Of a DNA stretch of 57,170 nt, positions 24,048 through 57,170 are shown piece by piece. Source of the DNA: Moniliella sp. 'wahieum'. Its lineage: Eukaryota. Each line of letters starts with the position of its first letter. The first letter of the stretch is position 1. Where the stretch lies: the NCBI GenBank assembly GCA_003971905.1, contig RSEE01000012.1, forward strand, positions 930,001 through 987,170. The letters are read 5' to 3'. The notes beneath the pieces were generated by a model. That model did no database searches and had not been told where the DNA came from. It was given only the letters and a program-made list of their open reading frames with translations. Made by a program: the position numbers and the translations under genes.

Positions 24048-24811
<764 letters not shown>

Positions 24812-32002: not shown

Positions 32003-32446
32003 TTAAATGAGCAGGCGCTCAATCTAGAAAACCAAAAGTCAGTATCATATCCCGCGACAGAGTAGAGCAGAAGTAAGGCCAACGTACAGCAGCTTGATGG
32101 TTTGAATCTGACTCTGCAGTTCGCGCGCCTCATTGGTGGTGACCGAAGCGGCAATGACAGGGCGCGAGACGTTGCAGGCGCGGCCCAGGGCCGTCTTGGA
32201 CGGGACAAAGACGTAGGGCACGTTCTTGTCCTCGCACAGGAGCGGGAGCGAGAGCACAATCTCAATCGGCTCCGTGTCGGCAGCCATGACGATGAACTCG
32301 CAAATGCCACGGTTGAGCGTCTTGGTCGCCTCGTTGGCGCCCTTTTTGAGCTGCTTGTAGTGCGACGCCTGCTGCACCAGGTCGAGGATCTGGTTGGTGA
32401 GCGTGGCGTCGGCCAAGGGGAAGGCCTTGGGGCTGATGGAGGACAT
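32003..32446 (-). CDS. SNU13: Snu13/15.5K L7Ae-family snoRNP and U4 snRNP protein; intron 32024-32087
   Basis: [59 protein letters not shown]; a GTACGT..TAG intron precedes the last exon IERLLI*. Confidence 0.96.
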
Positions 32447-35874: not shown

Positions 35875-36649
35875 CGCCAGCCTCTGGGCATGGGCGAGGC
35901 GAGGCGAGGCGCGGGATGGGGTGGAGGGGGAAAAGAACGCAGCCCGAGGGGGCAGCAACACACTGGGGGATTTATTTGGCAGGGCAACATTCCGCTTTCA
36001 GATTCAGTGCATCATGCATCATGCATCATACATCATGCATCATGAACCACCGCCGTCTCACAATCTCCGCCTCATTTAAAAATGGAAGCCCACATGCGAT
36101 GGGGCCAGGGCGAGCCATGCACAGAGGGTGGACGTGGTAGCGAGTGGAGGCAGGTCGAAGCGGCGTCGGCGGTGGAGAGGAGACAGGTCAAGCGAGCCCA
36201 TACAAGAGCACAAATGGAAGGCGCACGCGCGCGGGCAGAGCACGGTGGTGTAATACCAGCGTCGCATGGGGTCTGTCCAGGTCAAACGCGTGGGTCTGAG
36301 GAGAAAGCCAGCCATATCGTTGCAGGAGGGTGTGGTGGTCATGCATTCATTGCCCGCCGGCCGGCGACTTGAGGGAGGATGGACGTACAGACGAAAAACG
36401 TAGGGAACGCGTGGGCTGCGTGTGCGCGGGCACTCAAGCCGCAAGCCAGAGCCATCATCAAAACACAAACACATCCCACAAGCAACGCCCTCAGAGAGAC
36501 AAAAGGGGACAATGTGCGCACGGTACGTCCAGCCTTGCCCACCAGGCCTTGGCCTCCGCTCTGCCGGGCGGCTACCGTCCCCGGTCAGCCTTAATTTCTT
36601 GCCCTGTCTGCTTGTGTTCTCATGGACAATCACCGGGGCCAACACGGCG

Positions 36650-38900
36650 GCAGTAGCGGGGCATGACAAACCTGCCGCGCCACCATCCGAGGTTGTCGTT
36701 GCCTGGCGGGGTGTTTAATCTGGTGCGGAGGGAACACCTCGGCAGATAGCGGGGCGATCATTGGCTTTCCATCGGCTATTCTCCACCGTCCAGCGTATTC
36801 GTACCTGTTTAGCGCACTGGTCAGTACATTACCGTACATGATGAACGAATAGTGGGTACATCGTGCATGACAGTGTGAAAAGGCATATTTGCACGCCTGT
36901 AAGCCGCCCATACGGGCTAGCAAGGAGAAAAGAGCCCTGTCCCCCTCAACGCTCAGGTCCGCTCCCCGGATTGCCTTCAACCTCGCGCCAGAGCTGCTCG
37001 TCGAGATCTGGTGGAGCTGGTCCGCCAGGTGGTCTGTCCTCATAGAGCGGAGCAGGTGCCGCAAGTTCTGCTGCAGAGCCACGCGCAACACATTGCTGGG
37101 AGGATGCTTATCCGGAACTGTGTGCTATCCAGCACCCCATCATCTATGTGCTGCCATGCGTTACCAATGACCTGACAGCCCAAGTGGCCCACATTGCCAC
37201 ATGAAAGAGGTGTACTCGACATCGTTCTCGGGAGCAGTGTTGGCACGACGTCACTAACTGATTCTTCCGGCGTCCCTCCCGGACATACGCCATGCCCAGC
37301 GGACAAACTGTGCTGCGGATGGTCGCAGCAGGCGCGAAAAAGCGATTTCGAGCTAGTGGCGGGAGGGGACGGGGGGGGGGAGGGCAACATAAAGCTGACC
37401 ATGCACAGGAGTACGAGGCGGGGACACCCACATATCGCAAGCTTTGGCCCTGGACTTTTTGATAGTCATGTCAACTGACAGGGGCAATGGGGATGTGTCA
37501 CAGCTGTGAATGGGGCAGTCGCCATCGAGAGGCGGGAGACGGTCATGGACGGACGGGTGGTCGTTCCCGAGCTGACAAACGATGGAAGGTTGACCGGGGT
37601 GGAACGAAAATGAGACGGGCATGCCAGTGACCAACTCTGCACCGGGTTCGGACGTCATTTCACCAACGTACCGCATCCACCTCTTTCCTCGTTCTCTTAC
37701 CTACAGCCACGGATCACCTTCGGCCACCCACCAACGGACTCGTGTGCTGCGCTCGTTTTTTTGCCGTCAACGGAGCAACATGTCCTGATAAGCCCCGACT
37801 CCAGCGGTTCATGATCCTTGTTGCATTCCTTGTTTCGGCCTTGTTTGGCTTGTGTTTTTTCGAAGTGAGATTGGTTCCTTCCCACCTTACCGACCTCTGC
37901 CAACATACACTTCGCCACCGTAGACGGCACGACTCGAATCTTCTCCATTCGGTGTTGGGCCTGGGGCAATCCGTATGCACAGTACCTTACATATGCTCGT
38001 TCGCCTGTCACATATGCTCGTTCACCGGTCACCTGTCGTGGTCAGAACAGGGTAGCAGGAAATGTACTAGAGGCAACGCGGTGCAGGGTGAGGGAGGGGT
38101 GATGTGTGTTGCGGTAGGGATGAACTGTAAACTCCCAGGTGTGCCCCACGTGTCATTGGACCGCCCACCGGCTCAAGGTTTGGGAAAAGGAGGGTAATGG
38201 AGGGTCCAGGAGAGGGGAAGACAGGGATGATGATGGACAAGTGTATTCCCTTGGCTGGAGTTGGAAGATAGGTGTTGCGAGGCACTGAGTGAGCCAAAGA
38301 TGGTCATGATCCCCCCCTTTCTTACACCCTCGGCGAGGCCACACTTGGAGGGCGGTCCATCATGGATTTGGCGTGTGTCCACGGCCTCGCAGCCGCTGCT
38401 TTTGGAATGGTGTTGGTGGGCCGACTTGATTTGGATCAGGATCGCTGGTCAGCGACTTCGGCAGCCCGGCTTCAGCTTGCCTCCGGTGCGCCAGCACCGC
38501 CATGCGCGTTCTCCACCGCATCGTGTCTGTGCATCATGCCCGAGGGCCACACGGTCGTGCCAGCGCCCCGAATTGCATGCCGTGGGTAAGGAATACGAGA
38601 AGGATCGGCAGGAGTTGGACTGGCGGGGATGGAGTGGGAGGGGGCGATGGTGGAGACTGACCTGGTGGGCATTCGACGCTCAACCGGGCTACCCATTTTG
38701 TTGGGGTCGAATCGACCGCCAGCCACTGCATTGCTTCATTCGCGCAATTTACCACGACGCAAGCGACCTCCACCGTCCATATCGACAAGCAAAAACACTC
38801 GCCGGGCGTCTGCTGCCACCGCCAGCTGCCCTCCTTGTCCCCGATCCCGCCCCCATCGCGTCCAGACACCAAATAGACCATCCAACTATACCATCCGCTT
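36650..38900 (-). mobile_element. Decayed CRE/Cnl1-like non-LTR RT copy A
   Basis: 36630-37091 encodes LRVALQQNLRHLLRSMRTDHLADQLHQI..ALFSLLARMGGL, closely matching copy C. Patchy nucleotide similarity to the RT core and 5' region continues to ~38900. Confidence 0.75.
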
Positions 38901-39299
38901 GCCCCTCACACCCTTCGGTGTGGATCCAAGCAAAAGCCGCGTTCTAAGGGGTTCTCATCATGCGTTACACACACACTGGCCGCTTGGGAGGATGGACGTA
39001 CGAAGCAATGCGCAGGCAACCCGTTATAGTGCTGTCACTAAGGTTGCTCACGACACAAGCCGGAGTCAATGATCAAACGAACACGCCCCGCAACCATGAC
39101 CGTCAGAAACAAGTTAACCCTTGCCCCCCGTCTGGCACATCAGGCGCTTCATGCGCGTTCGGCCCGGCCCACCATCGTCCACCGCGGCTCTGTAACCAGG
39201 CCGTGATGGGAAGAGACCTTGGGCCAGCCTCATCGTTTCGGGCACCTACATACCCTCCATAGAGTGCCGGTGGTGCGGTGACGGGTGGAATAGCCTACT

Positions 39300-41300
39300 C
39301 CCCACCAATGCGAAATGTCAGCAACTTGGGCCCCCGCAGAGAACATGAACCACGTGCACACCGACCAAATTGGCGCACCGGGCCCAACCTAGGTCGGTAA
39401 GCCCAGAGAGGCGGGCACCGCGACCAAGCACATCACGAGGGACAGTCAACACCAGTTCAGCTTCTCATCCAGCAGGGCGTACACCCCCATGACTGACCCA
39501 CATTCCTTGGGCTTAAGCGAGGCGATCAGCAGGTGCGCAACCCCTTCTTCCTCGGCACCAGGTTGCGGCAGAAGCTGGCCAAGATTCGACCCACATCTTC
39601 CAAATGGTCATCGATATCTTGCAACGCCTGTCTGGTGTTCTCATCACCCACGCCCCCGTCACCGTATAGACAGCGGGTCCTGGCCAACCTTCCCGCCACC
39701 ATTCGAGCTTGTCATTGCCTGGAGAAGTGTTTGATCGGCGGCGGAGGAAATGCCGTTCAGTATAGGGTGGCGATCACTTGCTTCATCCATCGCTATTGTC
39801 CTGCGCCTAGCGTATTGGTACCTGTTTGGCGGCCTGGTCAGTACGTCACTGGAGAACAAGGGTTGGGTGGTCCCGTACATGATGAACAGCAAGTGGATGT
39901 AGTAGCAGTGCCAATGTGGCGCAGAAAAGAGGGAAACTGTATTGGCACGTCTCGCACTTCGGCGCGGGCCGAATGACCGAAATGAATAGGGTGGTGCTAT
40001 AGGCTTGCCGCATGCGAACAGGAATCAAAAGCGGACCGACGAGATGCCCCACCGCCTCACAGATGCCTTGATGGAAGCGTCAACACCATCTTGGCCGCCA
40101 CCACCGCGGGAGACAGGTGCGATATGAGCCCAGTCGCATCAGGGATACCAGCAGGCGCCAATGGAAGACACCATATCCAACCCCGTCTTGTCAGTGCCTT
40201 GAATAAAAGCAACCGGAATACCACCACCGTTGGCACCCGAAAGCCTAAGGCACCCATATGGGCTAGCAAGGAGAGACGAGCTTTGTCCCACCTTCGACCA
40301 GCTGCATCACTCTCGGATCCGCTCCTCCCGGATTGCCTTCACATCACGCCAGAGCTACTCGCCCATCTACTGGAGCTGAGCCGCCAGATCCTCCGACCTT
40401 ATTGAACGGGGCAGATGCCGAATATTCGGTTGCAGAACCCCCTGCACCAAAGCAGACGGTCGCGCAGCGTCAACCCGTGCAACGAGGGTGCAGAGCCGCT
40501 TGTGGCCTAACCTCACAGCCGCGTCCTGGGGACGCAGCGGACGCGCCGTCCGCCCTAGGACGCCTGCTTTGACCTGGCGGTGCGCACGCGGCAAATCATC
40601 AATAGATGGTGGCCAGGCCCCCTCGGGATCGGCCCTGAGGGAGACGCAAACGTCGATCGAGGAGCCTCCTTGCCAGCCCGCCTTCGGAAGGAGCAAGCAA
40701 GTTGAAGGCATCGCGATCGTCGAGATGATCTAGATAGGCAATTCCAAAGCAACTCGCGACCTGTTTGAATAGAAGCGGCACCATCGCGCTGACCGGCCGC
40801 GAGGCTGCTGCGTGCTCCATCACTCGAATGGATCTGAATCGGAACTGCCAGGTTGTCCGCTTCGGTGGCAAGTTTGGGCTGAGCGCACGACTGCCTGGCG
40901 TAGCGGCTGTCGGTGTCACGCGAGTGCCCGCCGGCCGAGGGTACGCGCACCACGGCAGGCGACACGATTCGCCACGATCTCCAGGCGGTGGGCAAGGCGG
41001 ATGAGAAGGAGGTGGTGGAGAGATGGAGAAGGAATCAGTTCAACTTGGCCGTGTCAGGCCTCAGGAGGCGCCAGCGGCTTGTTTTCACCCACCACAGGAT
41101 CGTTTCAAGTTTCAATCGTGCAATCAGTCCTGCTCGGGTGACCGGTGACCGGTGACCGGTGACCCCAGCCGCCTCCATCGCCCAGACGAACTAGTTCGGT
41201 AAGCACCACTCGGACTGCGTCTTTTGCCACCGCCAGCTGGCGTTTGTCCTGCTCCCGACCCACATCCCGCCCAGAGACGGGATCAACATCCCACTACGCA
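39300..41300 (-). mobile_element. Decayed RT copy B with the catalytic core deleted
   Basis: AYLDHLDDRDAFNLL, RAHRQVKAGVLGRTAR and WDKARLSLLAHMGALGFRVPTVV match copy C on either side of a large internal deletion near 40440-40500. Confidence 0.78.
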
Positions 41301-42794
41301 CCATCGCCTCGTTCCCCTCGCTCTTAAAAGTAGACCAGAGGAACAACAGTCGGGTAGGGTGTGGTTCTCATGCATTCCATGCCGACCGGCTGTTTGCGGG
41401 ATGAACGCACGAAGAAAACCCAGGGAACCCGTGAGTACGGTCCCTCACGTCGCGAGCCAGAGCCGACCATCACAGAAACATGCCCCTCAAGCAAGGACGA
41501 CCGACACAACGCTTCATCTCGTCCAGCTCACGAGGTCTTAGGGTGCGCCCGGCCGCCCGGACCACTACGCTGGCTGGCTACTTTCGGCCCAGCTTGGGTA
41601 ATTGGCGGTGTGACGGGAACGGGGTCGGCAACAGACCTCACCATTTTCGGGTACCATCCTGATGGCGAGGTTGGTGGCTCGAGCCACCTCCTTACGCCGA
41701 ATTTCAGAGCAAAACGAGGCCACCACACCAATTTGACTGGACGCACTGCAATACTAGCCGAGGAGTCGTACACCAAGAGTGCCTTGGACCCATTCGTGGC
41801 CAAAGTAGAGCACGCAGTCCAGAACGTTCTGCGGATACACATCTTGCTCGTCTTGTATTCTTGAGCAGCCAAAGCACCGCAAATGCCTAGCCCGGCTCCC
41901 AGGCTGTGGTTTTGCAACATGGTCGGCAGGTATACCATTGCTCGCACAGGCAAGAGTCCGAGCGGCAAGGCGAATAAGGAATGACAACCAACGCTTGCTC
42001 TCCACTGGCAGTGTGCCAAAAGCAGCCCTGGACAAACCACAGGCGTAGTCACCCTCAAGGAAGACCAAAGGGAACAGAGCTAGACATCCGTTGCACAAGG
42101 ATTGTACGTTGGTGCTTTGCTTTGGTCTCTGCGTCGAACAAGATGATCATCTCCTTCTTGCACAGCGCATGTGCCGGCGGGGCGGCAACGAGTGGATGGC
42201 AGACACGGCCTAGGATTGGCGTCGCGCGTCTTGTCCCCGAATGACCACAGGGTTATGCCGTTCAATATGTATAGGTTCTTTGGAGCACCTGCTTTAGCCA
42301 TCGTGATCTGAGCGCGGGCGACAGTGGTGTGGGAGCGTCCAATTCGCTCCGGATTGTTGGATGGGTCGGGCTCTACCATACCACATCACAGCCGATGAGC
42401 TCGTTCGCCAATACGTTCACCTCTCTCCGCAAGTCAATGCCCTGGCCTGTCGAGCAAAGTCAAGAGGAGAGAGCAAGACTGATCTGCCCAAACCGACGGG
42501 CATCGGGATGCCAACATGGCCCTACTATTGATCGACCACATTGCCGCAATCGTCGCCCCGGATGACTTGCCTCGTGCCATTGCGGCTCACCTACCCAGGG
42601 GAGTTTGGCCCGTGCTAGATCCGTTTCTCCGCCTCGAGCGAAACAGATGTCGGAGGAGTTGCTGCAAGCACGAACCGCAAAATGAACAACCGGTGGGGCA
42701 ACGTGAGGGATTTCAGGCAGGGGTAGCCAGTGGTTTGATCCACATTTTGACTCGCAAGAGCATCAGTCAGGTGATAACATCCCCAATACAGAAG

Positions 42795-43400
42795 CCCACG
42801 ATCTTGGGATGTTGCGCTTGCACATCTTGTACGCTGTGTTTGAAGTCGAGCCACGTTACACATTGGAACCTTTCTTGTTCACTCGGGCCCTTCGCGTCGA
42901 TCGCCTTCTGTAATGAAATGCCCAGCCGATGCACAATCTGCCGTACTGTCCCTTGGACTTGATTCTCATCTGGGAGAAGAGTGGGGAGGGCACTCTAATA
43001 AGCTGCAGTAAAATATTCGCCCCAAGACGAGACGGAGCCTGGAAGCATATGACTTGGCAGCATCCACAGCGTCATCATGTTGGGGGATCACCAAGTGCGA
43101 AGCGATGCCGAACCATCAACATCTCCCACATAGCTGAAAAGCAGGCACTCATTTGATCCATGTTGTTGCACTAGTGCTCGGACACTCTTGATGATCCATC
43201 TCTGTCTGCATACCCGTGCCTGTACGTTCCGGCCTGCACAAGCGCGTTTTGGTCAGTACATCATCCCAGAGGAAGTGTGAGTGGGGGGATCGTCGTCGTA
43301 CATGTAAAACCAGTAGAGCGAATCATGGCCCCGGTAGTGAGTAGGGCTGCGTGGATGGTTCTTTTCGTCTTTAGTATGAATTGCGCTGACGGTCGGCAGA
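42795..43400 (-). pseudogene. Highly degenerate RT relic, duplicate of 47755-48300
   Basis: RFQCVTWLDFKHSV aligns with RFKYVTSLDFTNAF of copy E. The DNA is strongly similar to 47755-48300. Confidence 0.65.
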
Positions 43401-44039
43401 GCAATGTTGAGGTGACGAATGCGTTCGCCGTGTGGAAAGGATTGTGGATCGTGGAGGGCTTTTCAGTCTACGCCGCAAGTGAGTCTGAGAAGAGTTTGGG
43501 CCTGCTGCTGGAACAAGGCTGGGCGTTCGACCCATTCGGTAAGTCCTGGGTGGGGATCAATGCGGTTGCCATGTTGAGGAACACCCAGCCACTCTGGGAG
43601 AAGAAGAGCTGGTCGGTCTGCGTGGGACAGCGGAGGCGTGGGGGCCGAGTTGGGGAAGGGAGAACAAAGGGGGGAGCAATGGGGCCACAACACTGCTGCG
43701 AGTGGCAATGGGCGAGGTGGAGGATTCACTTTGGCACAGCTCGGGTTAGGTGGGCGAGACAGTTACTTCAACGTTCCGTATTCAATCGAGATTGAGGCTC
43801 ATTAACCCCGTCTCTATCCTCTTCAGGGGGATCACGAGGGAGATGAAGAGCAGCCGCGCGACCTGTTCTACGCGCCCGTCCCGCACAACAGAGCAGCATC
43901 GAGCAGCATCTGCTCGTCGCCAGCCGTAGAGGCCTTCCCTCCAGGCGCATCTGCAGGGGGCGGGAAGCGTGCCCTGCCCCTTTGCCAATATTCCCTGCAT
44001 TGACGCCTTGCACGTCTGGCTGGGGGGACGTGGATGCCT

Positions 44040-47000
44040 CTAGAGCTGCGTCCAGCTAATGGGAAATGCTAGCAACTTGGGCGCCAGCAGAAGGGTATGA
44101 ACACGTACAGGCATCACTACCATCGAAGTTCCGGTACCCCATAGGTGGGCGGCCTCCAGGCTGATTTGCATTCCGCCACTGTGCATCGTGCCGACCTCGG
44201 CAATCCAGCCGCCGTCTCGACGCCAGTCCGGGTACTGACTGCATCGACAAGGATGTGCAGCAAAAAGTGGAACCCACGGGCATGCCCCCCCGTGAACACG
44301 CACCGATGTGGTGTGCAGCGAGAGAAGGGTGAAGAGGCAGCAAGGACACGAGGCGTAGCAAAGCTCCAGCGTGTTGGTGGTGGAGAGGCAAAAGCGGTCC
44401 CAAACGCAGCCAGGCCAGAATCGGCGCGGGGCTAAGTTTGGGCGGTGTGGCTGCGGCCATACGGAGGAACTTCTGCGCGCCAAGCACGGCGGCAAACGCA
44501 CGTTCAACGTTAACCCCGCGGCGGGAGCAGCCCTTTCTGCGCGTCCCGCGCAGAGGCAGTCGATTGCGGTTGCTCGTGGGGCTGCTCGGTTTGCTTGCGC
44601 CACCGCCATCTGGCGCGGTTGGCGCAGCCGCGGGTGAGTGCGAAGCGTGCCTTGTCTTTGCCAATGGTGCTGCCTATGGCCAAAGCGCCCAGCGGAGGTA
44701 CTCTCTCCTTGGGCGCGTTGCACGACTGTTGAGGCACGTTGATGTGGCAACGGCTAGACGAATGTGGGCGCTCCGACGGCGCCTGGCCAATGCCAAATGT
44801 CAGCAACTTGGCCCACCGCAGAAGGACATGAACAACGTACAGGTATCCCCACCAATAAAGGTGGCGCTCTGGGCCCATCGTAGGTCGGTAAGCGCAAAGA
44901 GAGGCGGGCACCGCGGCCAAGCACATCCCGAAGGACAATCAGGAGCGGCACAGCTTTTCATCCTGTTGGTCCCTCATCTCTGACCAACATTCCTCGGGCT
45001 TGGGCGAGACGACCTGCGCATGCGCAGCCCCTGTTTCCTGCACCACTTTGCGGCAGAAGCTGTCAATGGCATGATCCATGACATATCTTGCACCCCAAGT
45101 TCTTGCAATGCCTGTCCGTTGCGTTCATCTACAGCGCCCTCGGTTAACACTAGGACGGGCCCTGGCAAAGCGGCCCTGCAACCATCCGAGGTTGTCGTTG
45201 CCTGGCGGGGTGTTTAATCTGGTGCGGAGGCGATACCTCTGGATTGAGCGGGGGGATCACTTGCTTTTCCATCGGCTATTCTCCACCGTTTAGCATATTC
45301 GCACCTGTTCAGCGCACTGATCAGTACATTACAGCACAGCAAGGCTTGGGTGGCTTCGTACCTGATGAACAGATTGTGGGTATATCGTGCATGACAGTGT
45401 GAAAAAGGATTTGTACGTCTGGACTTCGGCGTGGTGGTAAGGCGGCAAGGCAAGTGGGGGCGCGAGAGATGTGCCGGATGTAACAGAAGCGGACCGACGA
45501 GGTGCCGCATCGCGTCAAGGTGTGCCTTGACCACAGTGTCAATTCCATCTTGGCCACGGCACCACCCTGGGGGGCAGGAGCGATGTGATCCCAGTCTCAT
45601 CAGAGGTACGAGCAGTCCCACTGCAATGGAAAGCATTGTATCCAATCCCATCTTACCAGTAGCTGTGGATGGAACCAACCGGAATGCCACCACTGTTGGC
45701 GCCCGAACGCCTAAGCCCCCATTCGAGCTGGCAAGGAGAAAAGAACCCTGTGTCACTTCTGCCCGTCCTTCCCGCTCGGATCCGCCCCGATTGCCTTCAC
45801 CTCGCGCCAGAGCTGCTCGTCGATCTGGTGGAGCTGGTCCGCCAGGTCGTCCCTCTGCATGGAGTGGAGCAGGTGCCGCAGGTTCTGCTGCAGAGCCACT
45901 CGCAACAAGAGCAAGCGGTCCTGCAATGGCATACCGTGCAAGGAGGGGTAAAGCGCCGCCTGAGCCTCCACCTTTGCCTGCAGAAAAGCGAGCCGAGCTG
46001 TCCTGGGACCCACGCACGAGCCAAGGAAGGTGCCGCCCTCCAGACGCAACTTCTGCGTCGAGACAGTCTTCGTCTTGCCCAGGTTGAGTTCCAGCCCCGT
46101 CTTGCTCTGCGCCACGACACGCGAGACCAGCTGCAACGCATTGGCGTTGCGGGACAATACATAAGTGTCGTCCAAATAGGACACCGCCAACCCATCGTCG
46201 CCCAAAGCGCGCTGCGCCTACTCGAGCATACTGCGGATGCCGACAGAGAAGAAGGGCCCAAAGGGGTCGCCCTGCCTCACTCCCTGCTGGCTCAGGAGGC
46301 TTCCAAAGCCGCCTACACCAACCAACACCAACTGGGTGTGCTTCCCATAAGACCAACGAAAGAAAGGAAGGAGCTCGGGCGAAGAGTCACTCACCGCTTG
46401 GGCTACCGCTGCCCGGTCGATCGAGTTGAACGCATTCTTAAAGTCCAATGACAGCACATAGTTGAATTTGGCCCAAGCTGGGTCCCTCTCTTTCCCACTA
46501 CCCAAACGATCCACAAGCCGCACGATCGGCTTCACACCGCCCATGGACTTGACGCCGAACTGCGTGTGGAGTAGAGGAGTAACCACATCGAAATGAAGAA
46601 GTGCCTTGGCCATTACGCGGTAAAGTAGCTCACCACCGGCGATCGGTCTCACTCCACTGTCAGGCTTCGCAAGCGCCGCCCACCTACTGGTGCACAACAG
46701 CCAAGCACCCGGACACGTCCCATGAAACATGGCACACGCCATGGCTTTGAGAGCTGCTCTAAAGTCATCGTGCTTTAAAGCCAACTGGAGAAGAGGAACC
46801 AACCATCCGCCCACGCCTCCGCCCACGTCCCGGGAGAAGCTGCTTGCCGGGCGATAGATGTCCTTATCATCCACACTCCAAAACCGTTGGGGCTCACGGG
46901 CGTCTGCCGCTGCGGTGTCACCTGTTAAACCAGGCCGGGCTCGCTCCGACATTTGCCGAACCACCAAACCAGCCAGCGGGTTCTTCGGGCCTGCAGGGTG

Positions 47001-47750
47001 CTTCGCGCGCAGGGCCTCTACCGTTTCCGGCCCAAAGCCCACCGCCGCATCCTGGCGATGCAACGTGCGCGCCGCACGCCCCAGCATGCCCTCTTTGACC
47101 TGGCGGTGTGCACGGGTCAGATCATCGGAACGCTGGCGCTCTGCAGAGCCCTTCTCCATAGCTGGCGGCCAAGCCACCTCCGGATACGCCTTGAGGGTGG
47201 CACAAACGTCGGCCGAGGAGCCCCCCCGCAAGCCCGCCTTCGGCAGGGCAAGCAGGTTGAACACGGCATAATCGTCGGGATGATCTAAGTAAGCTCGTCC
47301 CAAACGACCGGCCGCCTCCTTGAATCGACGCCGCACCATCGTGCTGCCTGGCCACGAGGAGCAGTGCACTCCACCACTCGAATGGATCCGAATCGGAATT
47401 GCCGGGTTGTCCGCTGCGGCTATCAGATTGGGCTGAGCACAGCCGGCACCGACTGCCTGGCTTAGCGCGTGCGCGCCTGAGCTGTTGGTGTTACGCTAGT
47501 TCCCAGCGGCCTCGTTCACGCGCATTACACCAGGGGGTATATGGTTCGCCACGACCTCCAGGCGGCGGGCAATGCGGAGGAGAAGGTGGCGGTGGAAAGG
47601 TGGAGAGGGAAGAAGTTCAACTTGACCGCGTCAGGGGGGGGTCAGCCGCTTTTTTCCGTCGCCCAGACAAACGCATTGCGAGCGACGAGCGCCGACGCAG
47701 CGGCCAAGACGCACCGCTTGGATCGCGTCTCTTGTCACCGCCAGCTGCCC
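44040..47750 (-). mobile_element. Most complete CRE/Cnl1/MoTeR-like non-LTR RT copy C; RT ORF ~45720-47369 with two in-frame stops
   Basis: ALAKPDSGVRPIAGGELLYR, QFGV, LDFKNAFNS, GVRQGDPFGP, SYLDD, GLELNLGKT, FLGSCVG and SLPARMG.GLG are typical of CRE-clade RTs. Confidence 0.9.
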
Positions 47751-47754
47751 CCTC

Positions 47755-48300
47755 CGATCTTGGCACGTTGCGCTTGCACATCTTGTACGCTGTGTCTGAA
47801 GTCGATCCACGTTACACATTGGAACCTTTTCTTGTTCGCTCGGGCTCTTCGCCTCGATAGCCTTCTGTACCGAAATGTCCAGCAGACGCACAATCTGCCC
47901 CACTCTTCCTTCGACTTGATTCCCATATGGGAGAAGAGGGGGGAGAGGACTCTAATCTGCAGCAGTCGGATATTGGCCCACAGACGAGACGGAGCCTGGA
48001 AGCATATGACTTGGTAGCTTCCACAGGAACCACTAATATCTCCCACATAAATGAAAAGCGGACGCTGGTTTGATCAACGTCCTTGCTCTAGTGCTCGGAC
48101 CCTCTTGATTATCCATCTCCGTCGGCATACCCGTGCCTGTACGTTCCGGCCTGCACAAGCGCGTTGGTCAGTACATCATACCAGAGGAAGTGCGAGTGGG
48201 GATCGTCGTCATACATGTAAACCAATAGAGCGAATCATGGCCCCGGTATTGAGTAGGGCTGCGCGGATGATCATTTTCGTCTTTAATATGAAAGGCGCTG
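47755..48300 (-). pseudogene. Highly degenerate RT relic abutting the 5' end of copy C
   Basis: RLWANIRLLQIRVLSPLFSHMGIKSK..IVRLLD..RFQCVTWIDF aligns with RLLAKILLLHIDVRSPLLRTQLGVKSK..IVRLLD..RFKYVTSLDF of copy E. Confidence 0.7.
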
Positions 48301-49379
48301 ACCTGGCCTGTCGGCGCGGGGCAGCGGAGGCATGCAGAATGCGAGTAACAAAGGGAGGCGCAATGGTGCCACAGCCCTGATCCGAGTGGCGGGCAAAAGG
48401 GGCGACGCGGAGGAGCCACTTTGGCACAACTCGGTTGAGGTGGTGGTCGCCAGCCCACCTGACCAACAAGCGTGTCCAGCGAGGCAGTCACATCAATGAT
48501 CGGTACCCAATCGAGAGTGAGGCTCATCGACACTATCCAATCCCGTCTCCATCCTCTTCAGGAATCCAACGAGGGAATTAAGAGCAGCCGCGCCCCCCCC
48601 CGGGTTGGTTCTACGCGCCCATCACGCCGCCTTGCTTCTCTTGGTTAGGACCTGCGGTACACATGCGCTCGCGGGGACAGTGATTGTTGCGGGACAGGTG
48701 GAACGAGACAATTCGAGCGACTAACTGGGCCGCTGCTCCAACGACGGCTGCCGCCATGACAGCCGCTATCTTTGCATGCACAAGGGCATGCCGCAAGAGC
48801 CGTACCAGGGGCTCGCCGTGTGGGTACCCGCCCCAGGAGCAGCGGGGGGGCGAGGGTTGGGGAAGGGGGAACGAGGAAATGTGAATGATAAGGAGTGGCG
48901 AATGATCAGGGGGTGGCAGACAGAGGATGTGAGGCTGAGGATGCACTCCGACACGGCTTGGGGGTGGGGGTGGTCGACAGCCCACCCGAATGGCAAGCGC
49001 GGTGAGCCAAGCGCCGCATCAATCCTCGATATTCAATCGAGAGCGAGGTTCACTGACGCCAATCACACTATCTGCACCCTCTTCAGGGGTTCGAGATGCG
49101 GCGCCCTTCATCCCCCCTATATGGCAACGGCAGGCCGGGTCTCGTGCACGGGTGAAGGGATGGAACTGCGGCTGGGCCGGCCTGCTCGGTCAGCAAACGC
49201 GTTCTCTGGCAGCAGGCAAACCTGTCGCCGCCGACCCCACCTTCTTTCGGAGTGCCGTGACAGTGCGATAGACAGCCCACTGCGGCCGCTCGTTCCCCGC
49301 ACCCCGTCTCCACGTCTGTACCGGACCCGCATAACAGAACAGCATCGAACAGCATCGAACAGCACTTGTGCCTTGATAG

Positions 49380-50640
49380 CAACTTGAGGGCCTTCCTTGT
49401 CTGCGGAACCGAGGGAGTGCGAAGCCGGACTTGCTTGGCTTGTGGTGCAGCACCGATAGCCAGAAAGGACAGCGCCTTGTCGGCGTACCCTCCATACTTT
49501 GAATGACTGGCTGGGGGCGTTGACGTGACGAGGTGAAGGGCTGCGTGATGCATCCGACCCGATTGCCTCCAGGACTGCGCCTGATCATTGAGAAATGTCA
49601 GTAACTTGTGCCACGACAGAAGAATATGGACCACGTACAAGCACATCCACGCAAAAAAAAGTTGGCGCGCTCGGCCCATCCTGGAACGGCAATCCTCGAG
49701 AGGGGTGAGCGCCGCGACCAAGCACATAATGAGGGCTGAAAAGTAGCAGCACTTCTTTGCATCCCGTTGGTCGCATACGACCATGCTGCCCCCCATTCCT
49801 CAAGCTTGAGCGAGGCCATCTCCGGATGCGCATCTCCTTCTTCACCGACACAACGACGCGGTATAGGCTTGCAATGGTTTGATCCGATCCGCGTCTTTAT
49901 AATGGACCTCAAACTCTCGTGCAAAGCGTGTCCATTGGGCTCATTGGGAACGATGCCAGGCCAGTTGGGCGGCGGGACCGCCACCATCCGAGGTTGCCAC
50001 TGCCTGGCGGGATGTTTAATTTGGTATCAAGGAATGGCTCTGCAGATGGTGGGGTGATCACTTGCTTGTTTCCATCGGCTACTCGGCTCCGGCAGGCTTA
50101 TTTGTACCTGTTTAGCGCGCTGGCCAGTACATCGTGGGACAACGAGGCATGGGTGCTTTCGTACCAGAGTAACACATAGTGGGTCTAGCGGTACCAACGT
50201 ACCAACGTCGGGCAAGGCAGCGTAAAAATGATTTGCACATCTAGCAATTCGTCCTGGCCATGAGGCCAAAAGGAAGGCGGCAGCACGATAGGCCTTTCGG
50301 ATGTAAACGCAACAGAAACGGAACGACGAGGTACCACACAGCGTAACAGTGTGCCTTGATGGCAGCGTAACCCCGTCTTGATCGAAACACCGCGCCGGGG
50401 GACCGGTACGAGAGCCCAGCCTCGCTCGTCGATGAAGGAAGCAGCGGTACGAGCAGCCTCACAGCAAAGGAGGGCCCCATATCCAACCCCACCTTACCAG
50501 TGCAACTGCTGGCGAAAGTACCGGAATGTTGACCTTGTTGGCACCCGCATTGCAAAGGGAACACCCATATCCATGTCAAGAATGCTCCCCAGGTTGATGT
50601 GGCAAACGATTGTTGCTGCACCCCACTCCGACAAGCCCAA
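49380..50640 (-). mobile_element. Decayed copy D, retaining only the post-RT and 3' portion
   Basis: Collinear with ~44640-45750 at an offset of about 4.8 kb, e.g. ACCATCCGAGGTTG..CCTGGCGGG.TGTTTAAT at 45181 and 49983; TGKVGLD versus TGKMGLD. Confidence 0.72.
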
Positions 50641-52949
50641 ACGCACGCACAGCTGCTCAGGGGTCATGGGTCCACTTCTGCGTACGCCAGTTGCCACCAA
50701 GCCTTTGTGGCAAATGGTTGCTCTTGGGAGCCCAAGCACGGCCGATTTGGGGAGACATCTAAAATCGATACAAGCAGGTTGTCGGCGCTCCATCGGGGAG
50801 TGAGGTTGGCGCGCTGCCGTTGGCCAATGTGCAACGCAAATGGGAGGGCGGAACATACCAGCAAATGAATCATCCGCGAGTGGTGTTGCTTTTGGTTGGG
50901 GCGCCGCTGGCTCTGAGAGGTGTGCACGATGCATGCTGCTGACCAGCAAAGGGGAGTGGGCAATCCCTACTGCCGCCCTCGTTGCCACCACACGCACAAT
51001 CCAGTTGTCACTACCCCAAGGGTGGGCCGCCTTCAGGTTGATTTGTATTCCGCCACGCATCGTGTCGACCACGCTTTGGGCAGAAGCAGCCGAATCGGGG
51101 AAAACCCGATCCACGTTTGCACAGAAGGCCAGGTTCGTCGTACCGATGACTCGCGATGGGAGGGTGAGGGAACAGCGCGCCTTGCTCGGCCTGTTGTTGG
51201 AGCCGACCTAGGCCTGCGTCCCAGCCGCGCGCTCGCATCGGGCGCTGCTTCAACAAGGATGGGCAGCAAGAAGCGGAGGCAAGGGGCGCCGCGCCCCATG
51301 AGCACGCATCCGGCTTCGTGCGCAGCAAGAAAAGAAGAAGCTAGGACACGAGCTGCAGCAGCGGCCCCACAGTGCTGGTGGTGGCGCAGAATCAAAAGCC
51401 GCGCAGACGCGACGAGATTAAATTCAGCGGGGTGCTAGGGTTGTAGATGGTGGCCGCAGCCAATGTGGATGAATTGCAACTGCGTGCGCGCGCCAACCGA
51501 CGCGGCGGCCGCAACGCGCGACCCAACGCTCGCCGCGATACCGAGCGGCCCAGCGCTGTGCCGGGGGGTGCATCCGCACCCACACCAGCACCACACTCCC
51601 GCCCCTGGACCCTCCCCGCGCGTGGCTGCGCGGCCCGTACCCCCTCCTTGGCTGGCCCGTCCTTACTGGCCTGACTGGGCCACGAACCAACCCACGCTGC
51701 CGATTCTTGGGGACAGCAGTAGGCGTTTGCCACGCTCGGCAGCACAGCGCACCAAGCAAGCGGAGCCTTGTCTACCCACCCGCCAATCCGACACACAGCG
51801 CACCCAGTGCGCCTGTTGGTCGTGCGTCCTGCGTCCCCTCGCGTCTCGTCCCCGCCTCCCGCCTTCACCGCCGTCGTCCCCGTTGCCCCCGTCGCCGCAG
51901 CCACTTGGCTACCCCCCTTGGCCGTTGTCCCGTCCAGCACCATGCTCTGCAGCTGCTTCGCGTCGAGGCCATGTCCATGGTGTTGTCCTGCGAGCTGCTC
52001 CTCGGACTCCGCGAGGGCGCTGAGCGCGGAGGCGGTCGATTGTTGTTGTTCGTCGGGGTGCTCGCTGTGTGTCGCCTAACATCTCTCGTTGCGGCCAAGA
52101 AAAACTACCAACCTAGTCTCTCCCTTTCGCACGAGCAGCAGCCGCTCCAGACCCGTACTGCAGCCGGAAGCGCTGCAGACGGCGTTAAAGGCGTCCGCTG
52201 TTAACCCAGAAGCACGTGGCTATCCCCTAGGGGCGGCGCCCGGCCGCTAAAAGAGCCGGATGCAGGTCCGACACCGCCTTCGCACGTCTCCGCCCGGCCA
52301 AATGGCAATCAGGATCGTCCGAGCAGACCCCACCGAAGGCGGAGTGGAGCGGGTACTTTCTTCGCCAGTGCAGCTGCCAATCATCAAGTGGGGCAGTGCC
52401 TCCATGGCCACCGCGTACGCTCGTATGCCTGGAAAAGGGGTATTGATCCAGGCAGATTCCTTGGTGGGGCGTTTGATCTACTCTGATTGTCAGTAACTTG
52501 GAATGCACAAGAGAGCGTGGGTAACGTACCGCCATCACAATCTGGGGCAGCGGGGCAGCGACGGTCCTAAGCGAACAATGCCGACAGTAGCCTTGCCACG
52601 CGCGGATATCCCAGTCAAGAGGAACATTCGTAGCTGGAGCAAGGTAGACGAGGGGGCAAGGGATGAAGCAGAGATGTGCTCGTCAACACAGCCATGCATA
52701 GTGTGCCAGCCCAAGGAGGCAACTCTATTACTCAAGGAGGCTGCTCCTTGGGGGTGGGCCATGCCTTCCATGGCGACAAACAACTTGGGGGTCCAGTGCT
52801 CGGCATCTTGCGAAGCTTCGTCAAACTGATAAGGCAAAGTGTATCCAGCAAGTATATCGTCCCCTCCGGTTCCTTTTCTGGTGGGGTCGCGCCACGACCC
52901 TGAAAATCATCATCATACACGTACGTTCTTGGGCGCCAGATACGCCAGT

Positions 52950-54570
52950 CGGTCCTCCGTATCTACCAGTCGCTGCAGGACAAGCACCCGACCGGCCCGC
53001 GCAACCCGATGGCTGGTATTGTGGTCCGGCAGGTCGCCGAGCGCCCGCCGCCGACGCTGACCGGCGACGCGATCGAGGACGACGAAGGCAACCCGCTGGA
53101 AGATCTCGAGGTTCAAGACAAGGATGTGGACCGTGCTGCTGCTAGCTTCTCCCGCGACGTGGGAGGCGGCGTCAGTGGCTGGTCCCAGCCGCTGCTGCGG
53201 CTCGCACTCCAACATGACGACTTTAAGGCGGCTGTCAAGTCCATGGCCACCGCCATGTACGCCGGCACCTGCCCCGGCGCCCAGCTGCTCTGCACCAGCA
53301 GGCTCACGGCTCTTGCCAAGCCGGACGGCGGTGTGCGCCCCATTGCCTGTGGGGAGCTCATCTACCGGCTCCTGGCCAAGATCCTCCTGCTGCACATCGA
53401 CGTCCGCTCGCCCCTCTTGCGCACCCAGCTGGGTGTCAAGTCCAAGGGCGGCGTGGAGCCGATTGTGCGGCTGCTGGACCGCGTCGTCACCGGAGGCGAC
53501 CAAGGCAACGGCCCCGAGTGGGAGGACCGGTTCAAGTATGTGACGTCGCTCGACTTTACGAACGCGTTCAACAGCGTGGACCGACATGTGATGGCGCAGG
53601 CCGTCAACGACCAGTGCCGCGAGCTGGTGCCCTTTTACCGCTGGGCATACGGACAGCACACGCAGCTGGTCGCGGGCAGTGCGGGGAACGTGCGCACGAT
53701 TGTCAGCCAGCATAGCATCCGGCAAGGCGACCCCTTTGGCCCCTTTTTCTTTTCCGTCGCGATCCGGGACACGCTCGCCGCGGCGCCGCGCGCTCGGCGA
53801 CTCGGGTGTGGTCGTGTCCTACCTGGACGACACCTACCTGCTGTCGCGCGCGCCCAACGCACTGTCGCTCGTGTCGGGCGCCCTGCGGCACGGAAAGACG
53901 GGGCTGGCGCTCAACATGGCCAAGACCAAAGTCACCAGCGTGCAAGAGATGCAGACCCAGGGTGCCAAGGTCCTCGGCTCGTGCATTGGGCCGCGGGACG
54001 CCCGCCTGGCCTTTCTGCGGGACAAGATTGCGGACCAAGCCTCTCGCTACCCCGCCCTGCATGGCCTCCTGCTGCAGGACCGGCTGCTGCTCTTGCGGTC
54101 GTGCCTGCAGCACAACCTCCGCCACCTGCTGCGCTGCATGCGGACTGACGATCTCGTGGATGAGTTGCGCGAGATTGATGTGCAGCTGTGGCAGGAGGTC
54201 AAGGCCATTCGGGGCGCCGACCCGAACGATGTGGAGGGACAACGGTGGGACGAAGCTCTTCTTTCCCTGCCCGCCCGGCGGCGGGCTTGGCTTCTTCTCC
54301 CCACCTCGACGTTGCTCCCCACGCGCGGGCGGCCTCGTGCGAGGAGGCGGATGTGTGGGTGGAAACGGTGATTGCTGGCTGCCGACCGAGAGAGAGAGAG
54401 AGAGAGACGCGCCAGCGGCCACCCGACAGTCGCAGCGGGAACGGACGACCGCCATGTTTGCCGACCAACAGGCGAAGCTACTGACCGAGCTGCCGCCCGA
54501 GTTGGGACACCGGCTGCTAGAGAACGCCGAAGCGCTCAACCGGACGTGGATGTCGGTAGGCCCACCTTAA
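52950..54570 (+). mobile_element. CRE/Cnl1-like RT copy E, in inverted orientation and truncated at both ends
   Basis: ALAKPDGGVRPIACGELIYR, LDFTNAFNS, IRQGDPFGPFFFS, SYLDD, VLGSCIG, SLPAR.GGLG, SQRER..LLEN..W. Frameshifts near 53780, 54280 and a few more downstream. Confidence 0.92.
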
Positions 54571-55488: not shown

Positions 55489-56334
55489 ACATTCTTGCCC
55501 CGCCGTAGTCGCCTAGCCCGTTCCCTAGGCTGTGGTTTCGCAACGCAGTCGAAGGGACAAGCGCATCCCACAAGGCACATCATACCTTCACTTGATAGTT
55601 AGCGATGAGCGAGCGAGGCAATGGTGGGGACTACTGGACACTCCAAGCAGGGCATGCGTCAGCCGATGAGTGAGCTGACGTTCGGCATGTCGTTGTGCTC
55701 CTCGGCTTAGGCGCTTCGCCGGCACACAAAGGGCAATTGGAAGGGAAGACTGGGTTGTGGGAGGATGCGAGTGGCCAAGAGAAATGAGCACCGGTTGGGA
55801 CGAATCGAACATGGCTCTGCGCCCCCGATGCCGTGCATGGCCCCGCATTGGTCATGCTGCGGACTCAGGCGACAGAGTTAACACTCATGCTGAAGGTGGT
55901 GGTGGTCAGGGCGATGCCTTGGCATACGTGTGGTGTGGTGGTGGTGGTGGTGGGGTGGTGGTGGTGGTGGTGGTGAGAGGATAGGGGGCAGGCCCGAAAA
56001 CCAGCACAGTTCACTGGCAATCGCGGCACTAGGGTTGCGACTCCGCAGCAACAGAATGAACTAGGGTTAATTATAATTCCAAGCCGCGCTTCAAGGGTGT
56101 CCACGCTATAGGGTGAACAGTGCCGAGGGAAGCACGATGCTGCAACCGTACGCAAAACTGTATATATATGGGCTCTATAGGTTACGGAGGGGGAGCGGTG
56201 GGTAGGTGCAGCGTCTATATAAGCTCTATATGGTGAAGTGTGTAGTACTGACTGGGCGATACTGTGGTTAACTTCGCAGATCGGACGGGATGCGGTGCTT
56301 TCACAGTTCTATGGCCGCGGATGCCTGTTGAGTT

Positions 56335-56635
56335 TGGAGGGGGGGGTATGGGGGGGAGGGTGTATTGAGGGGGGGAACCCTACTGGGGGCTAGCCCAGTA
56401 GGAGAGGACAAGGGAGGGGGGAGAATACACCAAGGGGCAACCCTGGGGGGACACAGGGGAGGAGGGAGGGAGAATACACAACGGGCAACCCTACTGGGGG
56501 CAGACCCCAGGGGGAGAGGCTACAGGGGAACCCTACTGGGGGCAGACCCCAGGGGAGAGAGTACAGGGGAGGAGGGAGGGAGAATACACTAAGGAGAACC
56601 CTAGGGGGGGCCCTAGGGAGACCCGAGGGGGATAC
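56335..56635 (+). repeat. G-rich complex minisatellite with AACCCTA motifs and short hairpins
   Basis: Repeated blocks AACCCTACTGGGGGC (x3), GGGAGAATACAC (x3) and CTGGGGGCAGACCCCAG (x2). Confidence 0.88.
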
Positions 56636-57170
56636 TCGCCGCAGTGGAGCGAGCTGGTGAGTAGGGTTTCGGGGTGCTCGGAGCTGGGTAAACAGCACTG
56701 AAAAACGGGAGGAGTAAAAGGGTATGGCTCAAACCTGATAGAGCGTCCGGCGCCGCTCACGCAGTCTTCCCTCTTTTCTTTCCCTCTTTTCGTTCTTTCT
56801 TGCGCGCAGGCGCGCTATTTTTCTGTATTTTTCTAGGGTTCGTACTTGGACATGGACCCCCTCCCGAGGGAGGGGGGGAACAGAGGTGCCGAGATGGGCT
56901 TCAGCCGATCGTGGGAACAAGCCCACTCTACGGCGTACGGCGCTCGGACCATGCCTCGTCTGCGGGGGATTGAAAGTGTGCATAACATGTATTTGTGGGG
57001 CGTGTGGTGGGGCGTCGCCCCGCCACAGAGACCCCCCAGTGGTGTACGGCTTGCGCCTATTGGTACCCAGTCCAGCGCACATGCGAGCGTCTAGCACGAG
57101 TTCCACCTTAGAGGCGTTCAGGTGTTACTCGGCGGGCGCGGCTGCGCACCTCTGCCCGGTCGGACAGGTG

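Follow-up and report, generated by a model that had tools for sequence, protein, structure and literature searches.

Ribosomal DNA (rDNA) is the classic habitat of R2, a non-long-terminal-repeat (non-LTR) retrotransposon of the restriction-like-endonuclease type. Fungal non-LTR arrays such as that of Cnl1 may expand by transposition or by recombination, according to 10.1101/2021.08.11.455996. PMC3846280 documents intron retention for Penelope-like elements, and PMC9548176 describes homing-endonuclease genes in nuclear rDNA group I introns that carry spliceosomal introns of the 47-nucleotide (nt) class, removed on expression. Here we analyze a 57,170-nt stretch of the Moniliella sp. 'wahieum' genome (assembly GCA_003971905.1, contig RSEE01000012.1, positions 930,001-987,170 of the forward strand; hereafter the window), in which repeated reverse transcriptase (RT) units beside rDNA carry eleven short intron-like elements of three classes. 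All eleven are found where the original prediction placed them, with the sequences it gave, and all lie on the RT-sense (minus) strand. On balance, judging from the sequence, the 16-kb stretch that holds them is probably a decayed array that arose when a single composite ancestor unit was duplicated as DNA, in segments or in tandem.

The ancestor unit would have consisted of a 5' leader (block X), an R2-like element represented by its N-terminal and RT portions and cut off shortly past the RT thumb, and an unrelated orphan sequence (block Y), followed by a spacer (S). Each of the three classes would have been present once, in X or in Y, and then copied with the DNA. The elements may once have been spliced from some transcript through this unit, while nothing would maintain them now. 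Their recurrence would thus be inheritance and not survival through an RNA intermediate, so that the paradox of a non-LTR element keeping sense-strand introns would disappear. The components of the array, with positions in a profile hidden Markov model (HMM) where these apply, are as follows.

36593-37091, minus strand: copy A, an internally deleted fragment of about 500 nt that comprises the RT thumb (HMM 537-615) and a portion of Y
39295-41084, minus strand: copy B, in which an N-terminal stretch (40496-41084) runs directly into the 3' end of the RT plus Y (39295-40513)
42799-43884, minus strand: block X of copy B, holding class 3
44048-44122, minus strand: fragment G, a 75-nt Y remnant with a class 2 variant
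44135-44593, minus strand: spacer S, after copy C
44622-45705, minus strand: block Y of copy C, orphan sequence replacing the C-terminal CCHC/endonuclease domain, holding classes 1 and 2
45717-47495, minus strand: N-terminal region and RT of copy C (tblastn E 1e-96 to protein P0005; HMM 79-598)
47755-48627, minus strand: block X of copy C, the 5' leader upstream of the RT frame, holding class 3
49403-50570, minus strand: copy D, block Y alone, from the GGLG-coding stretch, with no RT
51012-52069, minus strand: spacer S', which follows fragment F as S follows copy C; the two spacers are homologous over three collinear blocks at 65-83% identity
52470-52539, minus strand: fragment F, a remnant with a class 2 variant
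52937-54564, plus strand: copy E, an inverted RT copy of a different subfamily (family profile 207-694, to about 110 residues past GGLG)

Amplification at the DNA level, one of the routes offered by the original prediction, is supported by three features. First, the RT-to-Y junction is common to copies A, B, C and D, which align across it. Secondly, a sensitive self-comparison reveals a composite order (class 2 remnant, S blocks 1-3, second Y piece) that is seen twice, as F-S'-D (52539 down to 49403) and as C-S-G (44854 down to 44048). Thirdly, copy C compared with B, A and D shows no codon periodicity and, in each comparison, 15-19 insertions or deletions with lengths not divisible by 3, whereas the differences between copies C and E (66% DNA identity in the RT) follow the codon, at 0.26, 0.21 and 0.53 by position (p = 5e-21). 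Such a third-position bias is what two once-active subfamilies should show, judged by sequence divergence. The argument for DNA-level copying is carried by the chimeric junction common to the copies and by the composite order that is seen twice. Unequal exchange is expected to be frequent next to rDNA.

None of the array copies is intact. Copy C retains a frame (47495 to about 45755, minus strand) with YLDD and the LPxxGGLG thumb. Two in-frame stops interrupt it, TAG at around 46220 and TGA at around 45755, and a G run at the GGLG motif carries a 1-nt shift. In copy B the RT core (equivalent to copy C 45973-47021) is deleted. All three classes of element lie outside the recognizable RT frame: class 3 in X, some 650 nt upstream of where the long RT frame of copy C begins (47495), and classes 1 and 2 in Y after the thumb. 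A partial second copy of block X (48913-49087 versus 48386-48562, minus strand; 68% identity) is located about 525 nt upstream of the X of copy C, and from its position it appears to be a further sign of local DNA rearrangement.

The RT belongs to a family that has been little described. With six relatives as tblastn queries, the sole matches are to copy C (47360-45648), copy E and fragment A. The relatives are proteins of 680-1170 residues at 33-42% identity, two of them named from Tilletia and the rest from metagenome or other assemblies. Inspection by eye suggests zinc-finger-like motifs at their N-terminus, then the RT, a CxxC..H..C motif and a nuclease-like region at the C-terminus. Pfam detects RVT_1 alone, above its cut-off, in the six relatives, and below the cut-off in the window copies. 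Searched against solved chains, the family profile retrieves R2 proteins first (E 6e-21) and then LINE-1, while the P0005 model (mean predicted local distance difference test score, pLDDT, 69.6) gives whole-chain alignments to R2 proteins, which take Foldseek ranks 1-7. The profile and fold matches listed comprise R2, LINE-1, group II intron RTs, Prp8 and viral polymerases, with telomerase absent from that list, and none of the 121 open reading frames (ORFs) of the window nor any of the six relatives contains the GIY-YIG Pfam family; the family is therefore not Penelope-like. By profile and predicted fold the RT is R2-like, of a restriction-endonuclease-type non-LTR family with relatives in Tilletia. 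R2, NeSL, CRE, R4 and Hero are the candidate clades for it, the nearest solved proteins being those of R2.

A metagenome scan for the family yields 48 loci. Three apparently intact elements among them (L003, L004 and L006) maintain an uninterrupted frame from RT to C-terminus and have no match on either strand to the strict intron pattern defined below, so introns are not a family trait, a comparison that covers sequence outside anything homologous to X or Y. At two further loci (L031 and L033, 4686-4817) a full U4 small nuclear RNA gene (71.8 bits) is positioned about 175 nt upstream of a 5'-truncated family RT in the same orientation, possibly as a chimeric retrocopy or through a target preference.

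These relatives bear on the proposal that X, RT and Y together form a mobile non-LTR retrotransposon that uses unspliced RNA as its template and keeps its introns. Precise loss of an element is seen in no copy (class 1 kept in 4/4, class 2 in 5/5 and class 3 in 2/2), copies D, G and F could be read as 5'-truncated copies with a common 3' region, and ahead of the profile match the frame from X to RT is almost continuously open over about 190 codons. Set against this, the family's endonuclease domain is absent from copies A-D, the intact relatives have no introns, and the repeated Y-S-Y' order is not given by independent insertions. On the 3' side, homology stops at a different place in each of B, D and C/F, and neither tails nor target-site duplications are seen at the copy ends examined. 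Closer relatives showing the true 3' region were not found in two protein searches, which peaked at 42% and 33% identity. We regard this proposal as very unlikely. The CRE-like, intron-retaining element that had been put forward is unsupported, given the position of the elements outside the RT frame, the three uninterrupted intact relatives and the missing marks of retrotransposition.

The boundary between RT and Y merits closer description. The family's C-terminal domain is absent from copies A-D by tblastn (E <=50), by the full-length profile and by a C-terminal profile, with nothing collinear. A frameshift- and gap-tolerant protein-to-DNA alignment of this domain to Y gives z from -0.83 to 3.82 in 18 comparisons, each against 20 shuffles, and only two of them exceed z 3. 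In the relatives the domain is backed by the whole-chain fold alignment to R2 and by the motifs seen by eye. Copy E keeps only about 110 residues of the C-terminal region, with nothing common to Y, and the similarity between C and E ends entirely just past GGLG. Since the RT of copy C is barely decayed (E 1e-96 to the relatives), Y is read as a replacement and not as a ruin. Derivation of Y from a decayed C-terminal domain is unsupported, the resemblance noted by eye (WRIA after CxxC) being unproven. A known protein as its source was likewise rejected: a search of 1.84 billion representatives returned two matches, both internally repetitive tandem-repeat proteins whose score is made up of numerous weak segments, and Atlas gave no usable match. 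No homologues of X or Y were found for comparison. The Y frame of copy C is open for 161 codons (a length reached in 10/5000 shuffles), which we do not accept as coding evidence because ORFs of such length are common in this GC-rich stretch, 25 of at least 178 codons occurring in the same 22 kb.

The eleven elements themselves are listed here.

36805-36837, minus strand: class 1 in copy A, 33 nt, with a 24-nt internal deletion that spares both ends
39295-39357, minus strand: class 2 in copy B, with GCACGT as a GC-type donor and AG missing from the aligned acceptor
39822-39878, minus strand: class 1 in copy B, 57 nt
43234-43301, minus strand: class 3 in copy B, 68 nt
44056-44108, minus strand: class 2 variant in fragment G, with branch CTAGC
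44783-44840, minus strand: class 2 in copy C, 58 nt, GTACGT..TGCTGACA..CCAG
45305-45361, minus strand: class 1 in copy C, 57 nt, GTACGA..TACTGAT..AACAG, in frame and stop-free
48151-48214, minus strand: class 3 in copy C, 64 nt, GTATGA..TACTGACC..GTGCAG
49581-49638, minus strand: class 2 in copy D, 58 nt
50108-50164, minus strand: class 1 in copy D, 57 nt, with branch CTGGC (A lost), failing the strict pattern
52483-52529, minus strand: class 2 variant in fragment F, 47 nt

Local introns served as the model for a strict pattern, GTAYGN followed by RCTRAY and YAG and spanning 40-95 nt. It is matched by 7/11 elements, a signal having been lost in class 1 of copies D and A and in class 2 of copy B and fragment G. 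The window contains 11 strict matches, 10 on the minus strand, compared with 3.15 +/- 1.95 (maximum 9) in 100 dinucleotide shuffles. Four of these lie in gene regions and seven in the RT array, where all are on the minus strand and reduce to three families, with none on the antisense strand. From background rates of 0.03 strict matches per kb per strand (shuffles) and 0.1 (223 kb of the relatives' loci, including flanking genes), the roughly 8 kb of unique sense strand would be expected to hold 0.2-0.8 matches where three families are observed (P about 0.001-0.05, a Poisson estimate). This is unusual, not overwhelming. In donor, branch and length the elements are like the strict matches in gene regions, such as the end of SNU13 (GTACGT..GATACTGAC..TCTAG, of the form GTACGT..TACTGAC..YAG). 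The elements thus fit the genome's intron style and, from their sequences, probably were real introns, or could be used as such, in a transcript that ran through the ancestor unit; the sense-strand excess suggests that at least some of them were once genuine introns.

Chance provides another account, in which the elements were never introns, arose once in the ancestor unit and recur through copying. The background rate in the relatives' loci is in its favor, as is a looser pattern, under which the sense and antisense strands of the array have three families each. Block X also contains an antisense intron-like string (GTGAGT or GTAGGG..CGCTGAC..GGCAG; plus strand, 43337-43399 and 48253-48324) that is kept in both copies, a control that makes recurrence over copies no evidence of function. 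The expectation that splice signals would be better kept than interiors stands for class 1 (0.89 versus 0.52) and does not for class 2 (0.83 versus 0.76) or class 3 (0.94 versus 0.88), comparisons that are post hoc and involve 2-4 related copies. Class 2 is instead conserved as a whole element (0.83 and 0.76, with flanks at 0.44) and class 3 throughout (0.94, 0.88, 0.79). The caveat that the length of class 1 is divisible by 3 and its frame open in copy C holds and extends to all four copies, and the deletion in copy A (24 nt) is divisible by 3 as well; because the 57-nt element is in frame and open, its excision changes nothing and the reading frame cannot separate intron from coding sequence. 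Against chance are the strict pattern's three sense families and none antisense, the likeness to the gene-region matches, and the conservation of the class 1 signals above their surroundings (equalled by 58/10000 random column blocks). We consider chance an unlikely explanation, though one that deserves some weight.

Several further properties of the elements were noted. Class 1 is framed by a direct repeat, with GTACGAA or a one-base variant at its start (45355-45361) and directly past its end (45298-45304) in copy C and equivalents in copies A, B and D. The branch regions of classes 1 and 3 (36810-36825 and 48160-48175, minus strand) have 12 nt in common, ATGTACTGACCA, which exceeds the need of a branch site, and the invariant class 2 run CAAGTTRCT..CA (44770-44850 and four other copies) is longer than a branch site. 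Class 2 was rejected as a structured RNA, with five weak pairs only (-1.9 kcal/mol) and no conserved RNA fold, and as an introner-like element, since all five of its copies in the window lie in one array, inside homologous Y remnants.

A third possibility is that the units are an RT-derived multi-exon gene, or specify a long non-coding RNA, with at least one unit still expressed and spliced. The elements conform to the local intron style, with all signals in seven of the eleven, and copy C, the least decayed, has a long open frame from RT into Y. These points are opposed by the in-frame stops of copy C, the lack of protein relatives for Y and the missing codon periodicity among copies; with no copy intact, what remained would be non-coding. 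We judge a still-spliced transcript to be distinctly unlikely, and the multi-exon gene family that had been suggested is unsupported as a working family since every copy is broken.

Several points weigh against the duplication of a decayed composite unit. Neutral divergence also fits retrotransposed copies that were dead on arrival, and alone cannot separate the two routes. The differing 3' ends and missing target-site duplications may reflect later deletions in old copies, which are 64-81% identical to one another. Y is possibly a fast-evolving true C-terminus, given its 161-codon open frame in copy C. At least one apparent 1-nt assembly error, in TPI, makes single frameshifts weak evidence of decay. 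Finally, the strand-specific excess of strict motifs and the selective conservation of signals in class 1 hint that splicing takes place or once did, a possibility that duplication neither needs nor excludes.

The apparent assembly error concerns a housekeeping gene. On the plus strand at about 24670-24700, TPI changes frame between ..AENT and RIIYGGS.. with no space for an intron, which looks like a 1-nt loss in a C run, attributable from the sequence either to an assembly error or to a pseudogene. At the end of SNU13 (32024-32087, minus strand), excising the GTACGT..TCTAG element puts the conserved C-terminal IERLLI-stop one base out of frame, and without splicing the IERLLI peptide is in the same frame as the exon. 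The assembly thus probably contains single-base errors, and decay of the array is accordingly argued from stops, large deletions and divergence and not from single frameshifts.

The window (G+C content about 60%) terminates within an rDNA unit, next to which comes the RT array. The array adjoins the 3' end of the large-subunit (LSU) rRNA gene and 5S, but no rRNA sequence flanks the copies (E <=0.1, 34-57 kb). The relevant features are these.

56206-56322, minus strand: 5S rRNA gene (59.6 bits)
56875-57170, minus strand: LSU rRNA, 3' end only, truncated where the window stops (84.7 bits)

The fungal genes elsewhere in the window comprise a Zn2Cys6 cluster, a fungal AAA winged helix, TPI, SNU13 and a SNF2/RING helicase, and the stretch at about 34-56 kb extends from the last ordinary gene to the rDNA. 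Within this stretch no Pfam family except a weak RVT_1 was found (121 ORFs), 109 ORFs at 35-57 kb gave no Pfam family, and 34-57 kb contains no Rfam family besides rRNA and no tRNA. The window has no match to three telomere repeats, (TTAGGG)3, with up to 2 mismatches. A 42-nt subrepeat is present in two copies (56483-56570) in the spacer between the LSU 3' end and 5S. Origin of the array spacers from the rDNA spacer was rejected, a single 41-nt match being all that was found.

How the array compares with described systems can now be set out. It resembles R2 in that the RT matches R2 first by profile and fold, the relatives have zinc-finger-like, CxxC..H..C and nuclease-like motifs by eye, and the array adjoins rDNA. 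It differs in that no copy here lies within rRNA sequence, copies A-D are without the C-terminal domain, and no common 3' end, tail or target-site duplication is seen. Penelope-like elements similarly have sense-strand intron-like sequences in repeated RT units and partial tandem arrangements, whereas here there is no GIY-YIG, the RT groups with R2 and LINE-1, and the elements lie outside the RT frame. The Cnl1 and MoTeR arrays at chromosome ends are likewise composed of head-to-tail full and partial non-LTR copies in a repeat-rich, recombination-prone fungal region; the present array, in contrast, has no telomere repeats, is old (as its internal identities indicate), sits at an rDNA edge and has units that are chimeric with orphan sequence. 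The Cnl1 texts consulted do not describe introns inside Cnl1, and none of the papers listed by a literature search reports a fungal non-LTR element with introns. With the rDNA homing-endonuclease genes the array has in common mobile-element genes, an rDNA setting and a similar intron size class; there the element is of another kind and splicing was demonstrated by experiment, while here splicing is a prediction from sequence and the units are outside the rRNA genes.

A more specific variant of the retrotransposon proposal is that an R2-related lineage at the rDNA edge lost its endonuclease, gained introns in its leader and in a new 3' region, and propagates with them; we hold this to be highly improbable. 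In such a lineage, introns might help a transcript in an rDNA setting to be handled as mRNA, by analogy with the homing-endonuclease genes of rDNA group I introns, or might instead mark it for spliceosome-linked silencing. Work in Cryptococcus reportedly describes spliceosome-coupled silencing of transposon transcripts. If the elements were spliced and also survived retrotransposition, the lineage would be the first non-LTR one, Penelope-like elements aside, to retain introns, and it would bear on mobile-element expression near rDNA.

The elements are real as sequence, and their likely cause is the ordinary DNA-level duplication of a chimeric pseudogene unit. The array is best described, on sequence grounds, as a set of decayed, DNA-duplicated retrotransposon pseudogenes with probable relic introns. 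It cautions that the recurrence of motifs over repeat copies is not independent evidence of function. It also provides an example of an rDNA-flanking repeat graveyard and draws attention to an R2-like family, shared with Tilletia and uncultured fungi, that has so far been poorly described.

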